Below are positions 8,845-48,429 of a stretch of DNA of 50,722 nt, piece by piece (position 1 is the stretch's first letter; each line of letters begins with the position of its first letter). Where the stretch lies: the IMG/VR virus record IMGVR_UViG_3300031992_004563, positions 329,798 through 380,519 of that record; one strand, written 5' to 3'. Position numbers and translations under genes: made by a program. The notes under the pieces are model-generated. The model did not search any database and was not told where the DNA came from. It saw only the letters and a program-made list of their open reading frames with translations. This DNA is from a virus (lineage: Duplodnaviria; Heunggongvirae; Uroviricota; Caudoviricetes).

Positions 8845-9312
8845 TTAATATGAATCATCAAAGAATGAATGTTTAATAGTTTCATCTGTTCTAAAATCTA
8901 TATATACAAGTTGAAATTCCCATGATACTTTACGATGTCTTTCTAACCATGGATACAGACCTTCTTCATTTGCATAATCTGCTATTCTATCATAATCATC
9001 TTTATTAATATATATATTTCCCAATTTATCCTGTATACCATATATTTTAACTATACCCCATAATCCAGATCCTAATAATGCATCAAGTTTTTTATTACTT
9101 TTATTTGTTAATAAACTTGGTATTTTATAAGTACCATCAAGTTTTAACCAACCATCTTCAATACCTTTTTTCATTTCTACATATGACATTAATTTATTAC
9201 TAAATATAAGTGTATCTTCAGGATCAATATCCTCGTTCAATGCCTTCTTAACTTCTTTAGCTACTGAAGCCATGATGCTTTCATATAAAGCTTTTTTATT
9301 ATCTTTTTTCAT
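8845..9312 (-). CDS. 155-aa hypothetical protein with MKKDNKKALYESIM...ALNE leader
   Basis: Intact ORF; leader shared with four other genes in the window. Confidence 0.85.
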   Translation of the reverse strand: MKKDNKKALYESIMASVAKEVKKALNEDIDPEDTLIFSNKLMSYVEMKKGIEDGWLKLDGTYKIPSLLTNKSNKKLDALLGSGLWGIVKIYGIQDKLGNIYINKDDYDRIADYANEEGLYPWLERHRKVSWEFQLVYIDFRTDETIKHSFFDDSY

Positions 9313-15876: not shown

Positions 15877-17832
15877 ATGATAAATTTTATTCCTGATGAA
15901 GAAATTAGAAATGATTTAAAAATATTAAATGGTGCACCAGATGTTCAAACAAAACGTGAAATTGGTGCAAAATATGGGTTATCTCCAAAAGAATGTACAC
16001 AATGGAAGCATGTTGCACAAAAAATATATGAATATTTAAGAACTGTTAGAAATTAGAAAACAGACTTCACAAAATAGGATGTTTCTGATTTTTATCATTT
16101 AACAGATGATGCTCAAAAATATGATAAAATATATCCATTTTTATTATTAGAATCAAGAGCATTTATTGAATATCTATTAAATCATATATACGCATATTTA
16201 ATTGCTAAAGGAGTTAAACAATATACATTAGATCATATTGACACTGTTAGATTAACCCGTGACATATATGGCAGCGCTGCAAATTTATTTCATCTTGAAA
16301 GATACAAATCAATTAAAAAGTATTATGATGAGCATTATGGCCATAAATAGTCATAGGCTCAAAGTAATAACAAATTATCTATTGAATTATAGGGGTTATT
16401 CATAGAAGAAACATATGAACAAAGAATGCAGCTCGAGCAGATTTTAGAAAATTTTATTAATGAATGTTATGATACTTATGTTTATGGAAGTTCTGAATAT
16501 ATAAAAATTTATAAATTAATGAATTCATATATTGAAGAGCGTGATAAATTAAGTGGTGGAAAATATCGTCCAAGATTACATGAATAGTTGCCGCCTGAAG
16601 TTATTAAGCTTAATGGATATATTAATGAATTACATTTATTATTATATACATATAGATATTTTTCACCAGATTGTTCTGCAACAACGCATATAACAAAAGA
16701 AAATAGAATAGAAAAATCAATTGAATATTTTAATAAAGTTTTTGATAAAGCTCTTAATAAAAGTGTTATTAATAAAATTATTTCATCAAATGATTTAACT
16801 GATATAAATGATATAAAAATTAGTGAATTATAGAAATCTGATTTTGGATATTATTTTATTATTTCATATAATGATAATAAAATATATCTTAATTTTGGTT
16901 TGCAACATGAAAATCAAAATATTGATAACATGGATGATCTTATTAAAAATTCAAGACATGTGCAACATTTAAATTACACAACATTAATATACGAAATAAA
17001 AGTTACATCCAAATTATATAAGAAAAAAATAAATGAATCATTTGATTTTAATAGTTTAAATGAGAATGAAATTCATTTAAATATTGATGATTTTAATTTT
17101 AATGATGAAAATCATAACGCAGATTCAAATATCATTGATGATGAAGATGTCATTAAAACACATATAGATTTTTGGAATTAGTTTGTTGATTTAGGTCTTC
17201 CTTCAGGCACATTATGGTGCAAATATAATTTAGGTGCAAAAATTGAGAAAATTGATTATAAAGATTGGCTGGGTGATTATGTTCAATGGGGTGATATAAT
17301 TCCAAATACTGCCAAAAAAACAGGATATTCATATGTATGGACAACATACAAACATTCAAGAGGAGCAACAAATATGTTAAAAAAATATATTACTGATACA
17401 GATTATAGCGCAAAAAATCCAGATAATAATTATCATCCATACTTAGATAATTTAACAAATCTTCTTCCAGAAGATGACATTGCAACATAGGAACTTGGCG
17501 AATATTTTCATATTCCAACTAAAGAATAGTATGATGAATTACTAAAAAATACAGAAACTTCATGGAAAATCAATTACCAAGGAGTTAAATGGCTAGATGG
17601 CAGAATTTTTAAAAGTAAAATAAATGGTAATGAAATATTTTTCCCGGCAGCAGGTGTTAGAAAAGAATTAAATTTAAATGGGTCTGGTGATATAGGTGAA
17701 TATTGGACATCATCATTAGATGAAGCATGTAATTCATTAGCTCATGTCTTTCATTTTAAAGATGGAAGCTATTTTATAGGAACTGATCCACGAGCACTTG
17801 GACATAATATAAGACCAGTATTTAATAAATAA
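15877..17832 (+). CDS. 651-aa protein with C-terminal Fib_succ_major-like (C-type-lectin-fold) domain
   Basis: One frame, ATG 15877 to TAA 17832, with 10 TAG, joining track ORFs 16588..16833 and 16900..17181. C-terminal domain has VDLGLPSGTLWCKYNLGA, FFPAAG, YWTSS and NIRPV. Confidence 0.82.
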
Positions 17833-17833
17833 T

Positions 17834-18655
17834 ATGAATATGAAAAATTATAATAAACATATATTAGAAGCTGTTCATAAAGGTATATAGTTGGCATTAG
17901 ATGACTATAATGATAATGAAGATATTATTTATACATCAACAATGCCAGATATTGCTGGAAATGATAATATGATAGAAGATACTATAGATTTTTATGTGAA
18001 TAAAGTTGATTTAGGACTTCCATCTAGAACATTATGGTGCAAATATAATGTTGGTGTTAATATGCATGAATTAAATGATGCTGAAGATTGGGGTGGCAAT
18101 TATTATGCATGGGGCGAAATATACCCAAAAAGATCATATGGATTTTTTAATTATGAATATTCTAAGTATAATGAAAATCAAACCGAAGACGATTTAGATG
18201 TATTAACTAAATATTGTAGTGATTTCAATTTTAGTCATGATATGACAACAGACAATTTAGTTGAATTGGAAAGAAGTGATATGCCAATAAAATTAAAATT
18301 ACGTAAAGGTGACAATATAAACAAATATTCAATGCCGACTTATGATCAATATAATGAATTAATAAAATATACAACATCTAAATATGTTAAAAATTATAAT
18401 GGAATTATTGGATTAAATGGAAAATTATTCACTAGTAAAATAAACAAAAAATCTATATTTTTCCCAGCTGTTGGATATATGAATGATAATGAACTTCATT
18501 ATGATGCAATGCAGGGTGGTTATTGGACATCTACTGTAGTTAAAGGCATGGATGTATGTGCATGGACATTTTAGATACATAAAAAATCAGATACATTAAT
18601 AGAAAATAGTAGAGTTGTTGGATTTCCAATACGATTAATATATAATCAAAAATAA
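17834..18655 (+). CDS. Leader + Fib_succ_major-like domain protein, 273 aa
   Basis: MNMKNYNKHILEAVHKGI*LALDD leader; VDLGLPSRTLWCKYNVG, FFPAVG, YWTST, FPIRL; 2 TAG. Confidence 0.85.
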
Positions 18656-30490: not shown

Positions 30491-32530
30491 ATGGCAGTTT
30501 ATAAGAGCAAATTTATAGAAATTGATCCAGATACTTGTTCTAAAGAAGAACTTTATGAAGCTATTAAAAAATGTGAAAATTTATCAGGTTATTATGAAAC
30601 CAAGCAACTTGCAATTAAAACATTTATTAATAGTGTATATGGTGCAACGGCTAATAAGTATTTCGTTGGTTATAATGTGGCTGTCGCAGAATCAATTACG
30701 CTTCAAGGACAGGATTTAAATCACTATTCAGAGAACTGTGTTAATAAGTATTTTAGAGGAATTTTTCAATCACAAGAAGAATATAATAGAGAAATTTATG
30801 TTCCATTATTCGAGTGGATGGAAAAATATGATATTGAAACAGCTAATGATTTTTATGCAAAAAATCAAAATAAAGAATGGGTTTTAATTAAACTTCCAAT
30901 TGATAAAGATATTATTAAGGGTGGGAATATTAATGAAGACACAAAGAAATTATTGAAAAAAGTTTTCGTTAAAACTTCATTTGGACAATATCTTGGAGAG
31001 CCTTATGAAAAAATAAAAGGATTTGAAATTAATAAAGGGAAAATAACTCCAACAATTCCATTGAATACTTTTGCATTAAAAGCAAAAAATTCATTAGATT
31101 CAAAAGAAAATCCATTTGCATATATGGGAAAAACCTCTTATTTGGAAGATGACCCAAGTTGTAGTATGACCGTTGCTGGTGATACGGATAGCGCAATTTC
31201 TTCAACAAAAATCTATTTAGATGATTTTCAAAAAACTATAGAAGATGCATTTATCAAATGTAAATTAGAAAATTTTGATATAGTTTTAAAACTACAAAAT
31301 GGCCAAGAAGTTGTTCCAGTTAAAAATCATACAACAAAGACAGTAGATCCAAATACATTGGAATTAATTGATAGGCCTATTAATTATATAATGAGGCACA
31401 AAGTTTCAAAATCTAAATTCAAAATTAAATCTGAATCTGGAAAAGAAATTATAGTTACAGGAGATCATTCATGTATGGTTTATAGAAATAATGAATTAAT
31501 TTCAATTAAAGCAAAAGATATAAATCCAGAAACAGATAAATTGGTCGAAATTATAAAATTACAAACTAAGCTTTCAAATATAAAATTAGTTGAGCAGCTT
31601 GAAGATTTTCAAGATGAATATGTTTATGATATTGAGGTAGATGATACACATACATTTTTTGGAAATGATATATTAGTGCATAATTCAATTTATGTAGAGT
31701 TTGGTCGTATTACAAATTATCTTAATATAATGGATATTTCAAAAGCCACAAGATTTATTGTTGATATGTGGAATTATGGTTGTGGACCATATATGAATAA
31801 ATGTTATGATGATTATGCAAAGAAATATAATTGTGATGTTAATCTTCAAAATCTTGAGCTTGAAAAAGTTGCTGATACAGCAATTATGACATCTAAAAAA
31901 CATTATGCAATGTCAGAATGTTTTAAAGAACCAAATATCTATTTAACACCTGGTGAGGAAGTTATTTATAAAGGTTTGGAATTAATTCAAGGTTCAACAC
32001 CTCCATTTGCAAAAGAATGTCAAGATAATTTTATGAGATATGTTATGAATTGGTATGCAACTCATACAACATCTCCTGAATTTGATGATATTTTTGCGCT
32101 TCTTAAGAAATATAAAGAAGACTTTATTAAACAAAACCCTGAAGATATTTGCAAAGGTGTATCAATTTCTGATTATGGAAAATTTATTTTAGATGATAAA
32201 AATAATTTTGTATTTGGAGAACATTGCCCAATCCATGTTAAAGCTGCAGGAATTTATAATTTCATTTTAAATCAAGAAAAGAATAAAAAATATAAAATGA
32301 AATATGAATCTATTAAATCAAGAGACAAAGTAAAATTCTATAAAACAACAGATCCTAATTATCCAGTATTTGGATTTGTTCCTGGAAAATACCCATTAGA
32401 ATTTGCATTACCAATGGATTATAATCAACAATTTGAAGATTTGGTTTTAGCACCATTAAATAGAATTATTGAAATTCTTGGGTATCAACCTCTTACTTCG
32501 GATTTATGTTATGTATCATCTTTATTCTAA
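30491..32530 (+). CDS. gp43: Family B DNA polymerase, C-terminal subunit (fingers/palm/thumb), intein-containing
   Basis: Motif B KTFINSVYG, ESITLQGQ, motif C AGDTD^S, KKHYA and YKGLELIQ. Confidence 0.9.
   Translation: MAVYKSKFIEIDPDTCSKEELYEAIKKCENLSGYYETKQLAIKTFINSVYGATANKYFVGYNVAVAESITLQGQDLNHYSENCVNKYFRGIFQSQEEYNREIYVPLFEWMEKYDIETANDFYAKNQNKEWVLIKLPIDKDIIKGGNINEDTKKLLKKVFVKTSFGQYLGEPYEKIKGFEINKGKITPTIPLNTFALKAKNSLDSKENPFAYMGKTSYLEDDPSCSMTVAGDTDSAISSTKIYLDDFQKTIEDAFIKCKLENFDIVLKLQNGQEVVPVKNHTTKTVDPNTLELIDRPINYIMRHKVSKSKFKIKSESGKEIIVTGDHSCMVYRNNELISIKAKDINPETDKLVEIIKLQTKLSNIKLVEQLEDFQDEYVYDIEVDDTHTFFGNDILVHNSIYVEFGRITNYLNIMDISKATRFIVDMWNYGCGPYMNKCYDDYAKKYNCDVNLQNLELEKVADTAIMTSKKHYAMSECFKEPNIYLTPGEEVIYKGLELIQGSTPPFAKECQDNFMRYVMNWYATHTTSPEFDDIFALLKKYKEDFIKQNPEDICKGVSISDYGKFILDDKNNFVFGEHCPIHVKAAGIYNFILNQEKNKKYKMKYESIKSRDKVKFYKTTDPNYPVFGFVPGKYPLEFALPMDYNQQFEDLVLAPLNRIIEILGYQPLTSDLCYVSSLF
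31190..31684 (+). mobile_element. Mini-intein (165 aa) in polymerase motif C
   Basis: GDTD|SAISST...VTGDHS (block B T-x-x-H)...VYDIEVDDTHTFFGNDILVHN|SIYV. No LAGLIDADG domain. Confidence 0.9.
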
Positions 32531-32560
32531 AAAATAGAAGCAAGTTTGCTTCTATTTTTT
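32529..32560. terminator. Bidirectional intrinsic terminator
   Basis: AAAAAATAGAAGC-aagttt-GCTTCTATTTTTT. Confidence 0.8.
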
Positions 32561-32568
32561 ATTATCTA

Positions 32569-32588
32569 TTTTGAAACGCGTTTCAAAA
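32569..32588. other. Perfect 20-bp palindrome (8-bp stem/4-nt loop hairpin or cruciform)
   Basis: TTTTGAAA-CGCG-TTTCAAAA, 31 bp downstream of the stop of the minus-strand Fib_succ_major-like gene. Confidence 0.85.
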
Positions 32589-32619
32589 TGTATTCTTGTT
32601 TTGTCATGAGAAGGTAAAA

Positions 32620-33360
32620 TTACTAAAAAACTGGACGAACATTAAATCCATTGTAACGAATACTGCCATTTATATAAACTCCTTCTTCATTGAAATATAA
32701 GTGCATAGCGTAGTTAGGGTAGTCAGTATAAATACTAGAAGACCAATAACAGCCTTCTACACCAACGCTGTTCGAAACGGATTTACTGCAGTAACCAGCG
32801 GCTGGTAAGAATATATATTTAGAAGAATCTAATTTATTAATAAATTTATAACCATTTACACCACTGCCATTAAAATTTCTTACCCATTTATTATTAGTTT
32901 CTTTAATTAATTCTTCAAAATCTGCTTTAGTAGGCATATGGAATTTAAAATTATATAAATACATATTCTAATAAACTGGATCATCCATAAATTGAAGTTC
33001 AGTTAAATGGTCTTCTTCATTATATTTAATTAAATCTTCATCAAATTGGTATGTTTTCCAATTATATCCATCAGGCTTGTTTGGAATAATTTCGCCCCAA
33101 GCGTAATAATCTCCATACCAATCTTCTGGCTTAGATAATTTATTAGGATCTACACCTAAATTGTATTTGGCCCATAATGTGCCTGATGGAAGACCTAAAT
33201 CAACTGTATACTTATTTAGTTCTATTTTATTTTTAATTACATCACTAGTATTAATTACATCACTAGATACAGAACTATTATCTTCCATATCTTCATAATC
33301 ATCAAGTGCCAACTAGATACCTTTATCAATAGCTTCTAATATTTGTTTATAATTTTTCAT
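32620..33360 (-). CDS. Leader + Fib_succ_major-like (CLec-fold) protein, 246 aa; candidate DGR target
   Basis: MKNYKQILEAIDKGI*LALDD leader; VDLGLPSGTLWAKYNLG, FLPAAG, YWSSS, RYNGFNVRPV; 3 TAG then TAA 32620. Confidence 0.85.
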
Positions 33361-34083
33361 TTAATTTCTATTAAATTTAGGTCTACAAAATATTGGGAAT
33401 TTTGAAATATTATCTGCAAATCCTCTATAAAATTCAACGCTTGATACATCCCAATTGGAAATATCATGTGACATATTAGATTCACAAAACATGTATTCCA
33501 TATCTTTAACACCTGAAACATCCCACTATGATAAATCCTAATTAAAGCTATGGCATTTATAAAACATATATGACATATTTTTTACAGATGAAACATTCCA
33601 TTTTGAAATATCACAATTAAATCCAATGCAATTTGAAAACATACCTTTCATTGTTTCAACATGAGATACGTCCCATCTAGAAACATCAAAGTTAGTTGTT
33701 ATATTCATACGATAAAATAATTCTGACATATCAGTTATATTAGATACATCAATCCAATTTAAATCTGCATTTGCATCTATTGTTGCAATATATGTAATAA
33801 CTTTTTTTAAAACATCTTTATTTGAAAATTGGTATTGAAATCCATATTTATTTGATAACTGTGCTAAATCTATTAAATCATTTTTTGTTAATTTAACTTC
33901 AAATAAATGTTTAATAGTATTATCAAATTTATCTTTTTCTATTTTATTTTTAATAACATCCTTTACATCGATGATATCACTCTATTGAGATATAGATTTA
34001 TTATCTTCCATATCTTCATAATCATCAAGTGCCAACTAGATACCTCTATTGACAGCTTCTAATATTTGTTTATTAATATCCAT
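33361..34083 (-). CDS. Leader + DUF285/BspA-like repeat protein, 240 aa
   Basis: MDINKQILEAVNRGI*LALDD; ADLNWIDVSNITDM; repeats FNxDISxWDVSxVxxMxxMF with TAG at the FNQD position. Confidence 0.85.
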
Positions 34084-34918
34084 GATCTCTTACTATTGAT
34101 GGTATATATTTCTTTTTTATATTACAATCATCAAACATTCCTGATGTTCTTGCTTTCAAATCTATATTCCAATTTGAAATATCCTAATTAAAACTATGTG
34201 CATCTCTAAACATGCAATTAAAATTATTAACTCCTGATACATCCCATTCTGAAATATCTTGATTAAATTGAGTATTATATTCAAACATATATCCCATATT
34301 CAATACATTGCTGACATTCCAATTTTTTATAGAGTCATTGTTAAAAAATGATTCTGCGAACATTGAAAACATATTAGAAACTTTAGAAACATCCCATTTA
34401 GAAAGATCACCATTAAATCTGCAATCTCTAAACATTCCTTCCATTGTTCTTACACTTGATACATCCCATTCTGAAATGTCTCCATTAAAATTAGGTGCAT
34501 AATTTTTGAATAAATTACTCATATCAATAAGATTAGATACGTCTAACCAATTTAAATCAGCATTATTATCTATTTTACATAAAAATTTAATTACATTACA
34601 TAATGTTTCTTTTGCAGTAATTGGATATTTATACCCAAACATTTTAGATAAAGATGCCAATTCACTTAATAATTCTTTAGTTAATCCTCCATATAATTTA
34701 TCAGATATTCTATTATTTAATTCTATACTATCATGATATCCAACATAAAACATTTTTAATAATTTTTTATGTCTAATTTTATCTGCAATACAATCTCTAT
34801 TAATTGTAATAATATCATTAGTTGGTTTTGATTCTTCATTATCATTAAAATCAAAATCATCTAACGCCAACTAAATTCCTCTATTGACAGCTTCTAATAT
34901 TTGTTTAGTTAATCTCAT
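34073..34918 (-). CDS. Leader + DUF285/BspA-like repeat protein, 281 aa
   Basis: MRLTKQILEAVNRGI*LALDD; five to six WDVS-type repeats; both FNQDIS (CAA) and FN*DIS (TAG) occur. Confidence 0.87.
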
Positions 34919-34929
34919 TAAATTTAATT

Positions 34930-35691
34930 TTATGGGAATTTTGGTTTATATTCATCTTTTATTGGGCATCCATTTTCCCATATTAATTGTTTATCTACCA
35001 CATTGGCAACATTCCAATTTGATATATTCTAATTAAATTCTTTATTAGAATAAAACATCATTTTCATATCCATTACATTAGATACATCCCATCTGCTAAT
35101 GTCATTATTAAAACTTGAATATTCAAACATTTGTTCCATACTTTCAACATTAGATACATCCCAATTAGAAATATCTCCAGTAAATGGACAATCATAAAAC
35201 ATACCAAACATATTAGTTGCATTACTTACATCCCATTTTGAAATATCACCATAAAATTGTTTTTGTGCAAATAATGTTGAAAAATCAGTAATATTAGAAA
35301 CATCTATCCAATTTAAATCTGCAAAATTATCAACACCATCCACATATACACCATCCACGGGCTATTTACCAACAATGTAATCAATAATCTATTGTAATTG
35401 TTCTTTAGTTTTAACTTTATATTTTATTCCTGTATATCTTGAATATATTTTTATCCATAAAATATCAGATATTGACATTTTATTAGTCGCATCAAATTTT
35501 TTATTTTCACTGAATGCTTCTTTTTCTAATCTACTAATTAATAAATGTAATTTATGTCTAAACTCAATATATTGATGATTAACATCAATAACATCAGATT
35601 TAGGTGTTGATGATTCTATATCTTCAAAATCATCAAGTGCTAACTGGATTCCTCTATTAATAGCTTCTAATATTTTATTATTTTTCATCAT
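34930..35691 (-). CDS. Leader + DUF285/BspA-like repeat protein, about 253 aa
   Basis: MMKNNKILEAINRGIQLALDD; joins track ORFs 35389..35721 and 35029..35358 through TAG; start could be 35688, 35691 or 35721. Confidence 0.82.
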
Positions 35692-36559
35692 CCTCTTTAA
35701 TATTTTTAGGTTTATACTCATTTTTTATAGGACAATCATCAAACATATATTCGGTGTTTTCTTTATTTTTTATTTTCCAATTAGATAAATCCTAATTAAA
35801 TGATGATGCCTATAAAAACATTCCACTAAAAATCATGCCATTAGAAACATTCCATTTTGATAAATCCTAATTAAATTTAGATGCTCCCCAAAACATTGCA
35901 CCAAAATTTTTAACATTAGATACATTCCAATTTGAAATATCTGAATTGAAATTTTTGCATCTACAAAACATCTATTCCATTGTTGTTACTTTAGATACAT
36001 TCCATTTTGAAATATCTCCAGCAAATGATGCCAATATATCATTTTTTGCGACTCTTGCACCTATATCATAGAATAACATTCTCATATCAGTAATATCAGA
36101 TGTGTCTATCCAGTTCAAATCACAATCTGGACCATATTTCTTTATTGCTTCTTTTAATAGATTTTGTAAGGCTTGTTTTGATTTAACTTTTCTATAAATT
36201 GTTGTAAATAATGCAATATTTTTTTCATACTTTGCTTTTAGCTAGTCATCTAAATGACTTTCTAATTTATTATCATGCATATATCTAATAATATAATATT
36301 CCTCCATAGTCATATCTATTAATGATAAATAATGCTCAAGATTCTTATTTATAATTTTATTTGCATTTGGACTAAGAGAATTAAGATCTTTCTATTTAAT
36401 TGCCTTTATAAACTAATAATCTAATAAATCACCAGCGCCTGTATTGATAGGCAAATGACTTGTATTTGTATCTAAATCATTAATATCATCTAACGCTAGC
36501 TGAATCCCTTTATTAACCGCTTCTAATATCTATTTTGATAATTTCACAACTAAAACATA
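35678..36559 (-). CDS. Leader + DUF285/BspA-like repeat protein, about 290 aa
   Basis: (MFLV)VKLSK*ILEAVNKGIQLALDD; KYGPDCDLNWIDTSDITDM; WNVS repeats; 8 TAG; start ATG 36559 or GTG 36547; absent from the ORF track. Confidence 0.82.
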
Positions 36560-36688: not shown

Positions 36689-38224
36689 ATGATTATAAAT
36701 AAAGAACAACTTGATGTAAATGATAGTAATGGTAATCAAACTAAATTATTGGTTATTTCATATGTTAATAAGGAAGGTAAAATCTCATATCTAAAGTGGA
36801 ATATTCCTCAATCTGAAATGTATGAATGGGCTTATACAAATAGAGCAAATGCTGATAAGCCATTTGTTGCATATGATTTAAATACAAGACAACCAATTAT
36901 TGATGAAAAAACTGGTCAACAGAAAATTGTTCAATGGAAATCATATGATAATAAATTCGTTAAAAAAATTCCAACAATTAAAAATCTTTCAGAGGGTAGA
37001 TTAAATGAAATTATTAATAGTTGGGGTGTGGTTGCAGATCCTTTGTTTGAAGCAAATACACCAGAAACTTGGTTTTGTGATATTGAGGTTCAAGTTTCTC
37101 CAGAGGGATTCCCAGATCCAGATTCTGCATCAATGCCAATTAATACAATAGCAATTACTAAATTTCCAAAGACTATAGTATTTGGACGTAAGCCTCTTTC
37201 TGAAAATGAAATTAAACAAATCCAAGAAAATATCAGAACATATTCTACATTAACAAAAGATTATGAATTTGAATATAGATACTTTGAATCAGAATATGAA
37301 ATGATTGAAGCATTTATAGAATTCATTAAAGATATTCCCGCAATTACTGGATGGAACTTTTTAGGATATGACTGGAAATATATTAAAAATCGTTGTGATA
37401 ATCTTGGAATTAGAGATTTAATTAAAATTTGTCCAACAAGGTCATTTACAAAATTTAAATTAAATCGAAAAAATGTAATTGATGTTCAAGTTCCATTACA
37501 TAAAATTATTTATGACTATATGTTGGTTTATCGCCAATGGGATAGATCAATTGAAGTTAAAGAAAGTGATAAACTTGATTGGGTTGCAAATAAAGTTCTT
37601 AATATTAAAAAGGTTGAGCATGAATGGGGATTTGAGGAATTTTATAGAGACCATTATATGGAATATGTATTCTATAACTTAATTGATACTATATTGGTTG
37701 AAAAAATTGATGAAGTTCTTAAAACTGCTCAAATTTGGTATATGTTAGCAAGTGAATTAAGAGTTTCATTAAATGATGCATTTTCAACTGTACTTCCAGT
37801 AGAAGTTGTAATGACAAACTTTGTATATCCACAATATAAAGTTGTCCCAAAGAAAATACAAAATAATAATGATGAAGAATCAGGAGATTATGAAGGTGCA
37901 TTTGTTTGGCCAACTCAAGCCGGTATTTATAAGTATATTGGAGGTTTGGATTTCGCATCACTTTATCCTACAACTCAAAGACAATTTGGAATTTCTCCTG
38001 AAACATTCTTATTTAAAGACCCAACATATCAACCAAAAGCAAATGAAATTAAAACTTGTAGTGGAGCAGTATATGTAAAAAGAGAAGATGCAGTTCTTCC
38101 AGCAATTCTTACACATTACTTTGGAAAACGCAAAGGTGCGAAGAACGACCGAAAAATTGCTGACACTGATAAAGAAGTGTTATTACAAATATATGAAAAA
38201 AGATTTGGTAAATTTGAGGATTAA
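36689..38224 (+). CDS. gp43: Family B DNA polymerase, N-terminal subunit (3'-5' exonuclease plus motif A)
   Basis: ExoI CDIEV, ExoII GWNFLGYD, ExoIII YNLID, YEGAFV, motif A GLDFASLYP; ends just after the first fingers helix. Confidence 0.9.
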   Translation: MIINKEQLDVNDSNGNQTKLLVISYVNKEGKISYLKWNIPQSEMYEWAYTNRANADKPFVAYDLNTRQPIIDEKTGQQKIVQWKSYDNKFVKKIPTIKNLSEGRLNEIINSWGVVADPLFEANTPETWFCDIEVQVSPEGFPDPDSASMPINTIAITKFPKTIVFGRKPLSENEIKQIQENIRTYSTLTKDYEFEYRYFESEYEMIEAFIEFIKDIPAITGWNFLGYDWKYIKNRCDNLGIRDLIKICPTRSFTKFKLNRKNVIDVQVPLHKIIYDYMLVYRQWDRSIEVKESDKLDWVANKVLNIKKVEHEWGFEEFYRDHYMEYVFYNLIDTILVEKIDEVLKTAQIWYMLASELRVSLNDAFSTVLPVEVVMTNFVYPQYKVVPKKIQNNNDEESGDYEGAFVWPTQAGIYKYIGGLDFASLYPTTQRQFGISPETFLFKDPTYQPKANEIKTCSGAVYVKREDAVLPAILTHYFGKRKGAKNDRKIADTDKEVLLQIYEKRFGKFED

Positions 38225-47685: not shown

Positions 47686-48429
47686 ATGAATTTTGACGCA
47701 AACAAAGTAAAGGACCAATTGGTACAAGGTATTCGTGATTGGTTTGGTAAAAATGGTAAAGGATGTAAAGCAGTAATTGGTTTGTCTGGTGGTAAGGACA
47801 GCACAATTGTTGCAGCATTGTGTGCTGAAGCGCTTGGCAAGGAAAATGTACTTGCAGTTAGTATTCCTGGCAAAGAACAGGGACTGAATGATGCTGATGA
47901 GATTGCAAAATATCTTGGCATTGAACTTAAAGTCGTACAAATTAGTAAAGTAATAGATGCTATTAAGTTTACTTTATATTATAGCGGTGATACTCGTCTG
48001 TCTGACCAGGCTGAACAAAATATTCCACCTCGTGTTCGTATGTTGATTTTGTACGCAATTTCACAATCTGTTAATGGTCGTGTAATTGGTACATGTAATG
48101 CAAGTGAGAACTACATTGGTTATTTCACAAAGTATGGAGACGGTGCTTCTGATTTTGAACCTATTGCAGAGTTGACTGTGCATGAGATTTATCAGATTGG
48201 GGATGCACTTGGAATTCCTAAAAAATGGGTTTATAAAACCCCAGATGATGGGCTTCCTCACAGCTGTCCTGATGATGAGAAGTTTGAGAAAGAAGGTTTC
48301 AATTATGAGAAACTTGACAAATACATTCGTACAGGCACCAGTGGTGATGAACATGCAGATGAGGTAATTGCACTAAAACATGAAATGAATCTTTTTAAAA
48401 TGCGAATGTCTGATACAATTAAATTTTGA
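47686..48429 (+). CDS. nadE: NH3-dependent NAD+ synthetase
   Basis: IGLSGGKDS PP-loop, PRVRM, GTCNASE, GYFTKYGDG, PIAEL and PDDGL. Confidence 0.92.
   Translation: MNFDANKVKDQLVQGIRDWFGKNGKGCKAVIGLSGGKDSTIVAALCAEALGKENVLAVSIPGKEQGLNDADEIAKYLGIELKVVQISKVIDAIKFTLYYSGDTRLSDQAEQNIPPRVRMLILYAISQSVNGRVIGTCNASENYIGYFTKYGDGASDFEPIAELTVHEIYQIGDALGIPKKWVYKTPDDGLPHSCPDDEKFEKEGFNYEKLDKYIRTGTSGDEHADEVIALKHEMNLFKMRMSDTIKF

Follow-up and report, generated by a model that had tools for sequence, protein, structure and literature searches.

The window analysed here is a stretch of 50,722 nucleotides that forms the last 50.7 kb of the 380,519-bp viral record IMGVR_UViG_3300031992_004563 from IMG/VR. Its minus strand carries at 32620-33360 a gene whose last codons resemble the variable region (VR) of a diversity-generating retroelement (DGR). 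The record has a G+C content of about 27% and many in-frame TAG codons, and with TAG read as glutamine the gene is one 246-aa frame ending in F-Q-stop. The same protein is encoded on a 497,886-bp ENA contig. Among deposited phages, tblastn found relatives of the gene solely in the Prevotella phages Lak-A1, Lak-A2 and Lak-C1. The source is a Lak-like gut megaphage of about 498 kb in which TAG is read as Gln. According to CheckV the record is 76% complete, and about 118 kb of the ~498-kb genome lie outside it, before record position 1. The gene is composed as follows.

32620..33360, minus strand: whole gene, 246 aa with three TAG codons read as Gln, TAA stop at 32620-32622.
33289..33360, minus strand: N-terminal leader helix, M-x-ILEAI-x-GIQLALDD followed by an acidic stretch, defined by alignments; residues 4-23 are helical in the structure model.
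32623..33207, minus strand: predicted C-type-lectin (CLec)-fold domain, residues 52-246; the list of VIA-align matches is almost wholly CLec-fold.
32794..32811, minus strand: conserved 5' boundary motif F-L-P-A-A-G (TTC TTA CCA GCC GCT GGT).
32629..32793, minus strand: VR-like segment, residues 190-244, with hypervariable codons rich in NNC and NNT.

Profile searches matched the gene product to TIGR02145 (E 4e-6) and PF07603 (E 1e-3); neither match reaches the curated cut-off. In the AlphaFold model, which has a mean pLDDT (predicted local distance difference test) of 88.6, the leader is followed by a disordered acidic linker with pLDDT <50 at residues 25-36. VIA-align matched the model to the Lcl C-terminal domain (Z 7.6), TvpA (6.4), TaqVP (6.4), an FGE paralogue (6.4) and Mtd (6.3). 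These Z values are middling and the list is coherent, with the DGR proteins TvpA, TaqVP and Mtd within the top ten. A Foldseek search against PDB gave no significant match for the model. The model points to a C-type-lectin fold with the variable segment at its C-terminus. Domains of the DUF1566 / Fib_succ_major type (CLec2) are a recognised class of DGR targets (PMC5758913). The initial annotation of the window had proposed a CLec-fold target domain of Fib_succ_major type, and this proposal is supported, as the segment sits where bona fide DGRs diversify the FISUMP / Lcl_C-like domain.

The codon usage of the gene changes in its terminal part. Codons 187-244, running from GCC GCT GGT to CGT CCA GTT, comprise 15 C-ending codons out of 58 (GCC, TAC x4, TGC, TCC, AAC x2, AGC, GGC x2, GAC, CAC and TTC) compared to 12 among the 186 other sense codons (Fisher p = 1.3e-4). 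Codons 141-180 (32821-32940) contain a single one, GGC. Only C-ending codons are raised in the segment; G-ending codons are not, and NNR codons are depleted. Two paralogs inside the window lack this signature.

15877..17832, plus strand: paralog of 651 aa, C-terminal FISUMP-like domain without the signature, 2/58 C-ending codons.
17834..18655, plus strand: paralog of 273 aa, TIGR02145 match with E 1.3e-3, without the signature, 1/58 C-ending codons.

Both counts of the initial annotation, 15 C-ending codons in the last 58 and one at 32821-32940, were recovered exactly, and its statement that the paralogs at 15877 and 17834 have AT-ending codons in this region was confirmed.

By its ILEAI-x-GIQLALDD leader the gene belongs to a set of about 20 leader-tagged FISUMP/Lcl_C-like paralogs found by tblastn in the record of this Lak-like megaphage. 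Among the 21 paralogs counted in the record, a single other one bears the signature; it is located at genome positions 139070-139891 on the plus strand, with 18/58 C-ending codons in the segment and 6/211 in the remainder (p = 5e-9). Orthologs from other metagenomes share the bias and have 12 to 21 C-ending codons per 58 (L001:7698-8459, L002:6025-6798, L002:6808-7581, an IMG/VR gene in G002, and others in G003, G005 and G008). Pooling five signature genes, the frequencies of A and C at codon position 3 were 0.11 and 0.30 versus 0.37 and 0.05 elsewhere, with G unchanged, and NNR codons amounted to 17% versus 44-49%. In these genes A is depleted at codon positions 1, 2 and 3, K occurs once in 290 residues, and Q is absent. 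A sliding-window scan of the whole genome for C-ending codons was discarded, since spurious frames in non-coding DNA confounded it.

An alignment of 123 family members further delimited the variable segment. Setting the threshold for a hypervariable column at an entropy of at least 2.3 bits resulted in 28 columns, all of which fall in residues 191-240 within the last ~55 residues. Interleaved with them is a conserved scaffold consisting of Y-W-S-S-S, T-D-x-P, A-x-x-L-Y-F and R-x-x-G-F-x-V-R-P-V, and codon-sized indels occur within the variable region of the family. The residues K, E, Q, M and W make up 5.9% in the hypervariable columns but 31.7% in upstream variable columns (p = 1.6e-192). At codon position 3 the hypervariable columns have C 0.43, T 0.44, A 0.10 and G 0.03, compared to a C frequency of 0.03-0.05 upstream, and A is kept at position 2 in 56% of the codons. 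The most frequent residues (N, Y, D, S, G, H and C) can be reached from AAY by one or two changes. In DGRs the typical template codon is AAC, whose mutagenesis can yield 15 residues but never K, E, Q, M, W or a stop, and indels occur beside AAC (PMC5758913). Because the composition of the hypervariable columns matches adenine mutagenesis of AAC/AAT, the footprint is read as DGR-type, that is, as a probable AAY-to-NNY conversion in a CLec2/FISUMP domain; no cognate template is known in the clade. Its NNC/NNT codons, the exclusion of K, E, Q, M and W, and the depletion of adenine all fit a CLec2 variable region, and the footprint presumably originated from a DGR.

The local C enrichment, together with homologous domains in GC-richer phages and bacteria, might also be taken as a sign that the segment was recently captured from a host gene with a higher G+C content, which was the fallback offered by the initial annotation. 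We regard such an origin as extremely unlikely. G at position 3 is not raised and A-ending K, E and L codons are kept, and the scaffold codons are AT-rich and match phage usage. Moreover, the same signature is present in thousands of metagenomic relatives of the Lak-like family, and the scaffold pattern occurs in no bacterial genome, a search of 185,579 species genomes having given no true match.

Further information on a possible template came from a 64-aa peptide, the family consensus with Asn at the hypervariable columns, that was searched against a set of 5.8 billion proteins. This search recovered two C-terminal fragments and one GC-rich template-like ORF (open reading frame) of another organism (P0183 on contig L021). 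An AT-rich template of Lak type was not found in the protein set, and nothing was found in IMG/VR. The element of L021 is located at 660-862 of an 873-nt metagenome contig with ~52% G+C. It looks like a template repeat (TR) for the same lectin domain because its homology is confined to the part from LFLPAAG to RPV and because 18 AAC and 2 AAT codons are found among its 66 codons. Of these 20 Asn codons, 19 coincide with hypervariable columns in the alignment of the megaphage family (Fisher 5e-8). The AAC-rich element is preceded by a 169-aa ORF without Pfam match.

A bona fide DGR for comparison was found in G027, a large-phage fragment with 31% G+C. Its VR ends a 415-aa ORF (L148 = G027:94000-112000, reverse strand about 9031-9198), the TR lies 453 nt downstream, a reverse transcriptase (RT) is encoded nearby, and TR and VR show up to 19 adenine-only mismatches per 60-nt window. 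The template contains AAC x11 and AAT x4, and hence a mix of NNC and NNT codons, such as that of the megaphage family, is expected from a DGR in AT-rich phage genomes. G027 also encodes a FISUMP-like homolog, about 4 kb from its DGR, which is not the target of this DGR.

Searches for the machinery of a DGR were negative. In the 380,519-bp record (76% of the genome) the RT profile PF00078 had no match at E<=1, phmmer with the BPP-1 Brt protein against all ORFs translated with TAG as Gln gave nothing below E 3.7, and Avd (PF05635) was not found. A scan for the YxDD motif was negative across the Lak-like sequence examined. Low-stringency blastn of the record with the variable region returned only the paralog at 139,7xx, with 66% identity and indels, and in an adenine-tolerant scan of both strands the best non-self match had 44 non-A mismatches in 188 nt. 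That a single template serves both the window gene and the paralog at 139070-139891 was rejected in view of indels and many differences not of adenine type. Template repeats were likewise not found for the VR-type genes of L001, L002, G001/G002, G005, G008, G010 and G013, and neither a template nor a DGR-type RT was found in L001, L002 or G001/G002, in the related Lak-like records G003, G005, G007 and G008 (111-263 kb), in Lak-A1 or in Lak-C1. As a positive control, the same searches detected an RT in each of four other phage records, and true TR-VR pairs were recovered from G027, G015 and G030. The initial annotation had regarded the gene as a remote target of a DGR and had suggested looking for a template repeat and an RT; the first search matched only a diverged paralog and the second found none, so that this part of it was not supported.

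An intact DGR that is remote or rarely firing would still be compatible with these results if the RT, the accessory gene and the TR were located in the ~118 kb outside the record and retrohoming were too rare to be seen between strains. The record is after all only 76% complete, DGRs can act in trans on distant sites (PMC5758913), and the footprint is still C-rich, which argues for recent activity. We nevertheless consider this explanation improbable. The gene list of the first ~9 kb beyond the record contains no RVT_1. The first 100 kb of G005 (204 kb) are collinear with record positions 271-367 kb, and its next ~100 kb, which have no counterpart in the record, probably represent part of the 118 kb outside it; in spite of five VR-type genes G005 has neither RT nor template. 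PF08010 as a landmark for placing G005 relative to the genome part outside the record was uninformative, as it had no match, controls included. G008 is collinear with record positions 88-370 kb, and as stated above neither RT nor template was found in this record, in G003, in G007, in Lak-A1 or in Lak-C1. In phages, DGR targets are only very rarely farther than 50 kb from the RT (PMC5758913); around the second variable-region gene (139070-139891) no RT is present for about 130 kb. Indels distinguish this gene from the window gene, and each of the two would require a template of its own. Finally, the region is static between strains, as described below. If the template does lie in the genome part outside the record, this would be a megaphage DGR whose targets and RT are over 100 kb apart; the survey published in Nucleic Acids Research did not expect such a distance for phage-associated DGRs and found just one possible case (PMC5758913).

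One paralog of G005 (G005:C1 about 199877, minus strand) has a C-terminus with Asn runs (TNNNNNAY, GNNNNK) at hypervariable positions that are encoded by ordinary AT-ending codons. It was considered as a template for the other G005 genes and rejected.

Alternatively, the targets carried by the phage could be diversified in trans by a DGR of the host (Prevotella or other Bacteroidales) or of a co-resident element. Bacteroidales DGRs commonly target this domain class, and Brt, Avd and TR function in trans from a plasmid (PMC5758913); the L021 element would show such a template in a GC-richer organism. A donor of this kind would be expected to import its own scaffold codons, but the scaffold of the phage is AT-rich (TGG TCT TCT AGT) in comparison to L021 (TGG TCG CGG TCG). 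Searches of IMG/VR, the JGI metagenomes and GTDB with scaffold DNA patterns gave only more VR-type genes or chance matches and no template, and the species genomes mentioned above contained no true match. Since in addition the region is static between strains, diversification in trans appears very unlikely.

Comparison of closely related sequences provided no indication of ongoing hypervariation. Contig L005 from another sample is identical to the gene and to 120 nt downstream of it. L029 differs at 26 of 567 positions upstream (4.6%) versus 4 of 168 in the variable region, and these four changes (C>T, T>C, G>T and G>A) include none at an adenine. Five proteins with 96-97% identity have 5 scattered changes and no hypervariation. 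Thus, the variable region is static between strains, and the view of the initial annotation that the gene is an active target was not supported. Within 90% clusters of relatives the variable region exists as few shared haplotypes, K/E/Q changes included, and this variation is ordinary evolution plus recombination. A mosaic structure is evident from the ortholog L001:7698-8459, to which identity is 74% in the leader, 97.6% in the middle part (381 aligned bases before the boundary) and 59% in the variable region. The break falls exactly after the GCT GGT of FLPAAG. Homogenisation of the scaffold codons by a shared template was considered and rejected, since synonymous codon identity in the variable region (67%) is not above that upstream (73%).

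The most plausible reading of a strong footprint, no detectable machinery and a static region is that the CLec2 lectin-fold protein carries an orphan DGR-type variable region, now spread by recombination, and we lean slightly towards this explanation. The last ~55 codons would then derive from adenine-specific mutagenic copying of an AAC/AAT-rich template, which would have left NNC/NNT codons, and hardly ever K, E, Q or M, at the ligand-binding positions. The RT and the TR would be absent from this phage lineage, or at least from 76% of the genome, and the region would no longer change. The variable-region alleles already present would be passed on as standing diversity and may move between paralogs and strains by ordinary recombination, with FLPAAG and VRPV as the conserved flanks. 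The protein putatively binds a host-surface or other ligand. Of the former designation as a DGR variable region, the NNY-type, adenine-depleted C-terminal signature in a CLec fold is supported; the active state, the remote target and a hairpin of BPP-1 type, which is discussed further below, were not supported.

Several observations weigh against an orphan variable region. For none of about 12 VR-type genes was a cognate template found, and no DGR-type RT was present in any Lak-like record examined. Two complete genomes with direct terminal repeats, G010 (197.5 kb) and G013 (101.7 kb), carry a homolog with the signature and a C-terminus poor in K, E, Q and M (G010:C1 about 127272, plus strand, p = 5e-5; G013:C1 about 62149, minus strand, p = 2e-4) and have no RT or TR anywhere. 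In the RT neighbourhoods scanned in three RT-bearing phages, the local DGR templates another gene and not the FISUMP-like homolog. The link from footprint to DGR is thus indirect throughout the family. In addition, position 3 of the hypervariable codons varies between C and T among relatives, which is unexpected from a single shared template, and the invariant scaffold codons hold adenines. Synonymous codon identity is, as given above, no higher in the variable region than upstream. After an ancient loss of the DGR, C at synonymous sites should decay in a genome with 27% GC; it persists in many diverged lineages. A composition rich in Y, S, G, D and N, which is typical of binding sites, also arises by selection for binding surfaces.

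These points bear on a possible, though rather unlikely, explanation in which no retroelement was ever involved. Binding loops would be under diversifying selection, alleles would be shuffled as cassettes among paralogs or co-infecting phages, and the NNY bias would be of unknown mutational or translational cause. This would agree with the lack of RT and TR in the family records examined, the two complete genomes included, with the few shared haplotypes and their K/E/Q changes within the 90% clusters, with the mosaic gene, with the absence of excess synonymous conservation in the region, and with the residue composition. However, selection on residues leaves unexplained why, in a 27% GC genome, C at position 3 climbs to 0.43 (0.03-0.05 upstream) while G is not raised, and why K, E, Q and M are almost excluded from the 28 hypervariable columns, compared to 32% in upstream variable columns. 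Nor does it account for the coincidence of the hypervariable columns with the AAC codons of the template-like element.

It also seems improbable to us that the Lak-like clade and some smaller complete phages keep thousands of NNY-coded hypervariable CLec alleles without an RT and TR of their own, the diversity being supplied by a retroelement in trans or by a new templated or targeted hypermutation that mimics a DGR.

With the CLec2 proteins of known DGRs (DUF1566 / DUF823 / Fib_succ_major; Legionella LdtA; category 'd' of Wu et al. 2018, PMC5758913) the gene product shares the weak FISUMP/Lcl_C matches, the CLec fold suggested by the model, variable last ~55 residues with interleaved scaffold, NNY codons, a repertoire rich in N, Y, D and S, codon-sized indels, and hypervariable columns that coincide with the AAC codons of the template-like element. 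Unlike them, it has a variable region that is static between strains, and searches for TR, RT and Avd gave nothing. Furthermore, an N-terminal phage leader takes the place of the lipoprotein signal, and about 20 paralogs, two of them with the signature, occur per genome in a TAG-recoded megaphage.

A precedent for orphan target genes is known from isolates of Treponema denticola that lack RT or TR, in which 'leftover' targets showing VR differences of adenine type have been retained (Nimkulrat et al. 2016, PMC4891356). In both cases VR-bearing CLec target genes persist without the core DGR. In contrast to the clade studied here, for which no template is known, the cognate template of T. denticola is known from sister isolates, which allowed adenine-only differences to be demonstrated directly. 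The Mtd protein of Bordetella phage BPP-1 (AY029185; Z 6.3) likewise has a CLec fold and a variable region at its C-terminus, but in BPP-1 TR and brt lie within 1.7 kb of the VR, whereas none were found here. The Prevotella phages Lak-A1 and Lak-C1 (MK250016, MK250029) are megaphages that possess the same protein family (33% identity) and no RT. Their homologs differ in having ordinary AT-ending C-termini (4/58) rich in K, E and Q, and a leader of the ILEAI..GIQLALDD type is absent from them.

Lak megaphages have not been cultured, and very little is known of their host recognition and of the roles of their many paralogous 'cargo' genes. Retroelements and lectins are not mentioned in the Lak genome papers examined, and a survey of jumbo phages including Lak-B8 reported no DGR-type lectin domains; the lectin family is therefore a modest new addition to Lak biology. 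The lectin-fold proteins of this Lak-like phage form a large family, and one of its subfamilies bears a hypervariable, putatively binding face of DGR type, of which metagenomes from gut and rumen contain thousands of alleles. If the machinery is truly absent, this would be a large-scale case of orphan variable regions kept as standing diversity.

Two hairpin structures are located downstream of the gene.

32569..32588, no strand assigned: perfect 20-nt palindrome TTTTGAAACGCGTTTCAAAA with an 8-bp stem and CGCG centre, 31 nt after the TAA.
32529..32560, no strand assigned: bidirectional intrinsic-terminator-like hairpin, A6-stem-loop-stem-T6, between the gene and the convergent DNA polymerase gene.

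The palindrome was noted in the initial annotation as a hairpin like that used in BPP-1-type retrohoming. Its existence and its distance from the stop codon are real, and a hairpin also follows the VR in BPP-1. The sequence occurs once in the record, which contains 5 perfect 20-nt palindromes versus 2.3 +/- 1.0 in shuffles; the palindrome is thus only mildly unusual. Both hairpins together give the intergenic region a fold energy of -21.3 kcal/mol. Unlike the BPP-1 hairpin, the palindrome is AT-rich and abuts the terminator, and no hairpin is present behind four other signature genes (g139, L1c, L2c and L2d), where the next gene follows at once. Due to its absence behind other signature genes, its position beside the terminator and a frequency only ~2x that of shuffles, the palindrome is probably not a DGR element, and a BPP-1-type role seems doubtful; an IMH element at the 3' end of a VR is defined only in relation to a TR.

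The leader is common to otherwise unrelated DUF285 and FISUMP-like neighbours, and tblastn gave leader-only matches to adjacent genes. It was also found at the starts of the genes ending at 34083, 34918, 35721 and 36547 and of the gene at 17834 on the plus strand, in each case as ILEAI-x-GIQLALDD followed by acidic residues. On contigs L001 and L002, arrays of leader-tagged genes adjoin the gene of the prohead protease (Peptidase_S77). Beside a paralog array of the megaphage genome, outside the window at G000:C1 about 6.8-8.1 kb, lies an IS605 OrfB / TnpB-like gene (PF01385, PF07282).

The family-B DNA polymerase is split into two plus-strand genes, 30491-32530 and 36689-38224. The former encodes a 679-aa C-terminal polymerase part with an intein (PF14890) and is located upstream of the latter, which encodes a 511-aa exonuclease/polymerase N-terminal part. 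Between the two parts lie five leader-tagged genes on the opposite strand (32620-36547), among them the gene studied here. Another plus-strand gene, 47686-48429, matches NAD_synthase and faintly QueC. Queuosine modification of tRNAs acts on NAY codons (Tyr, His, Asn and Asp), which are dominant in the variable region; the presence of this gene in the window may be a coincidence.

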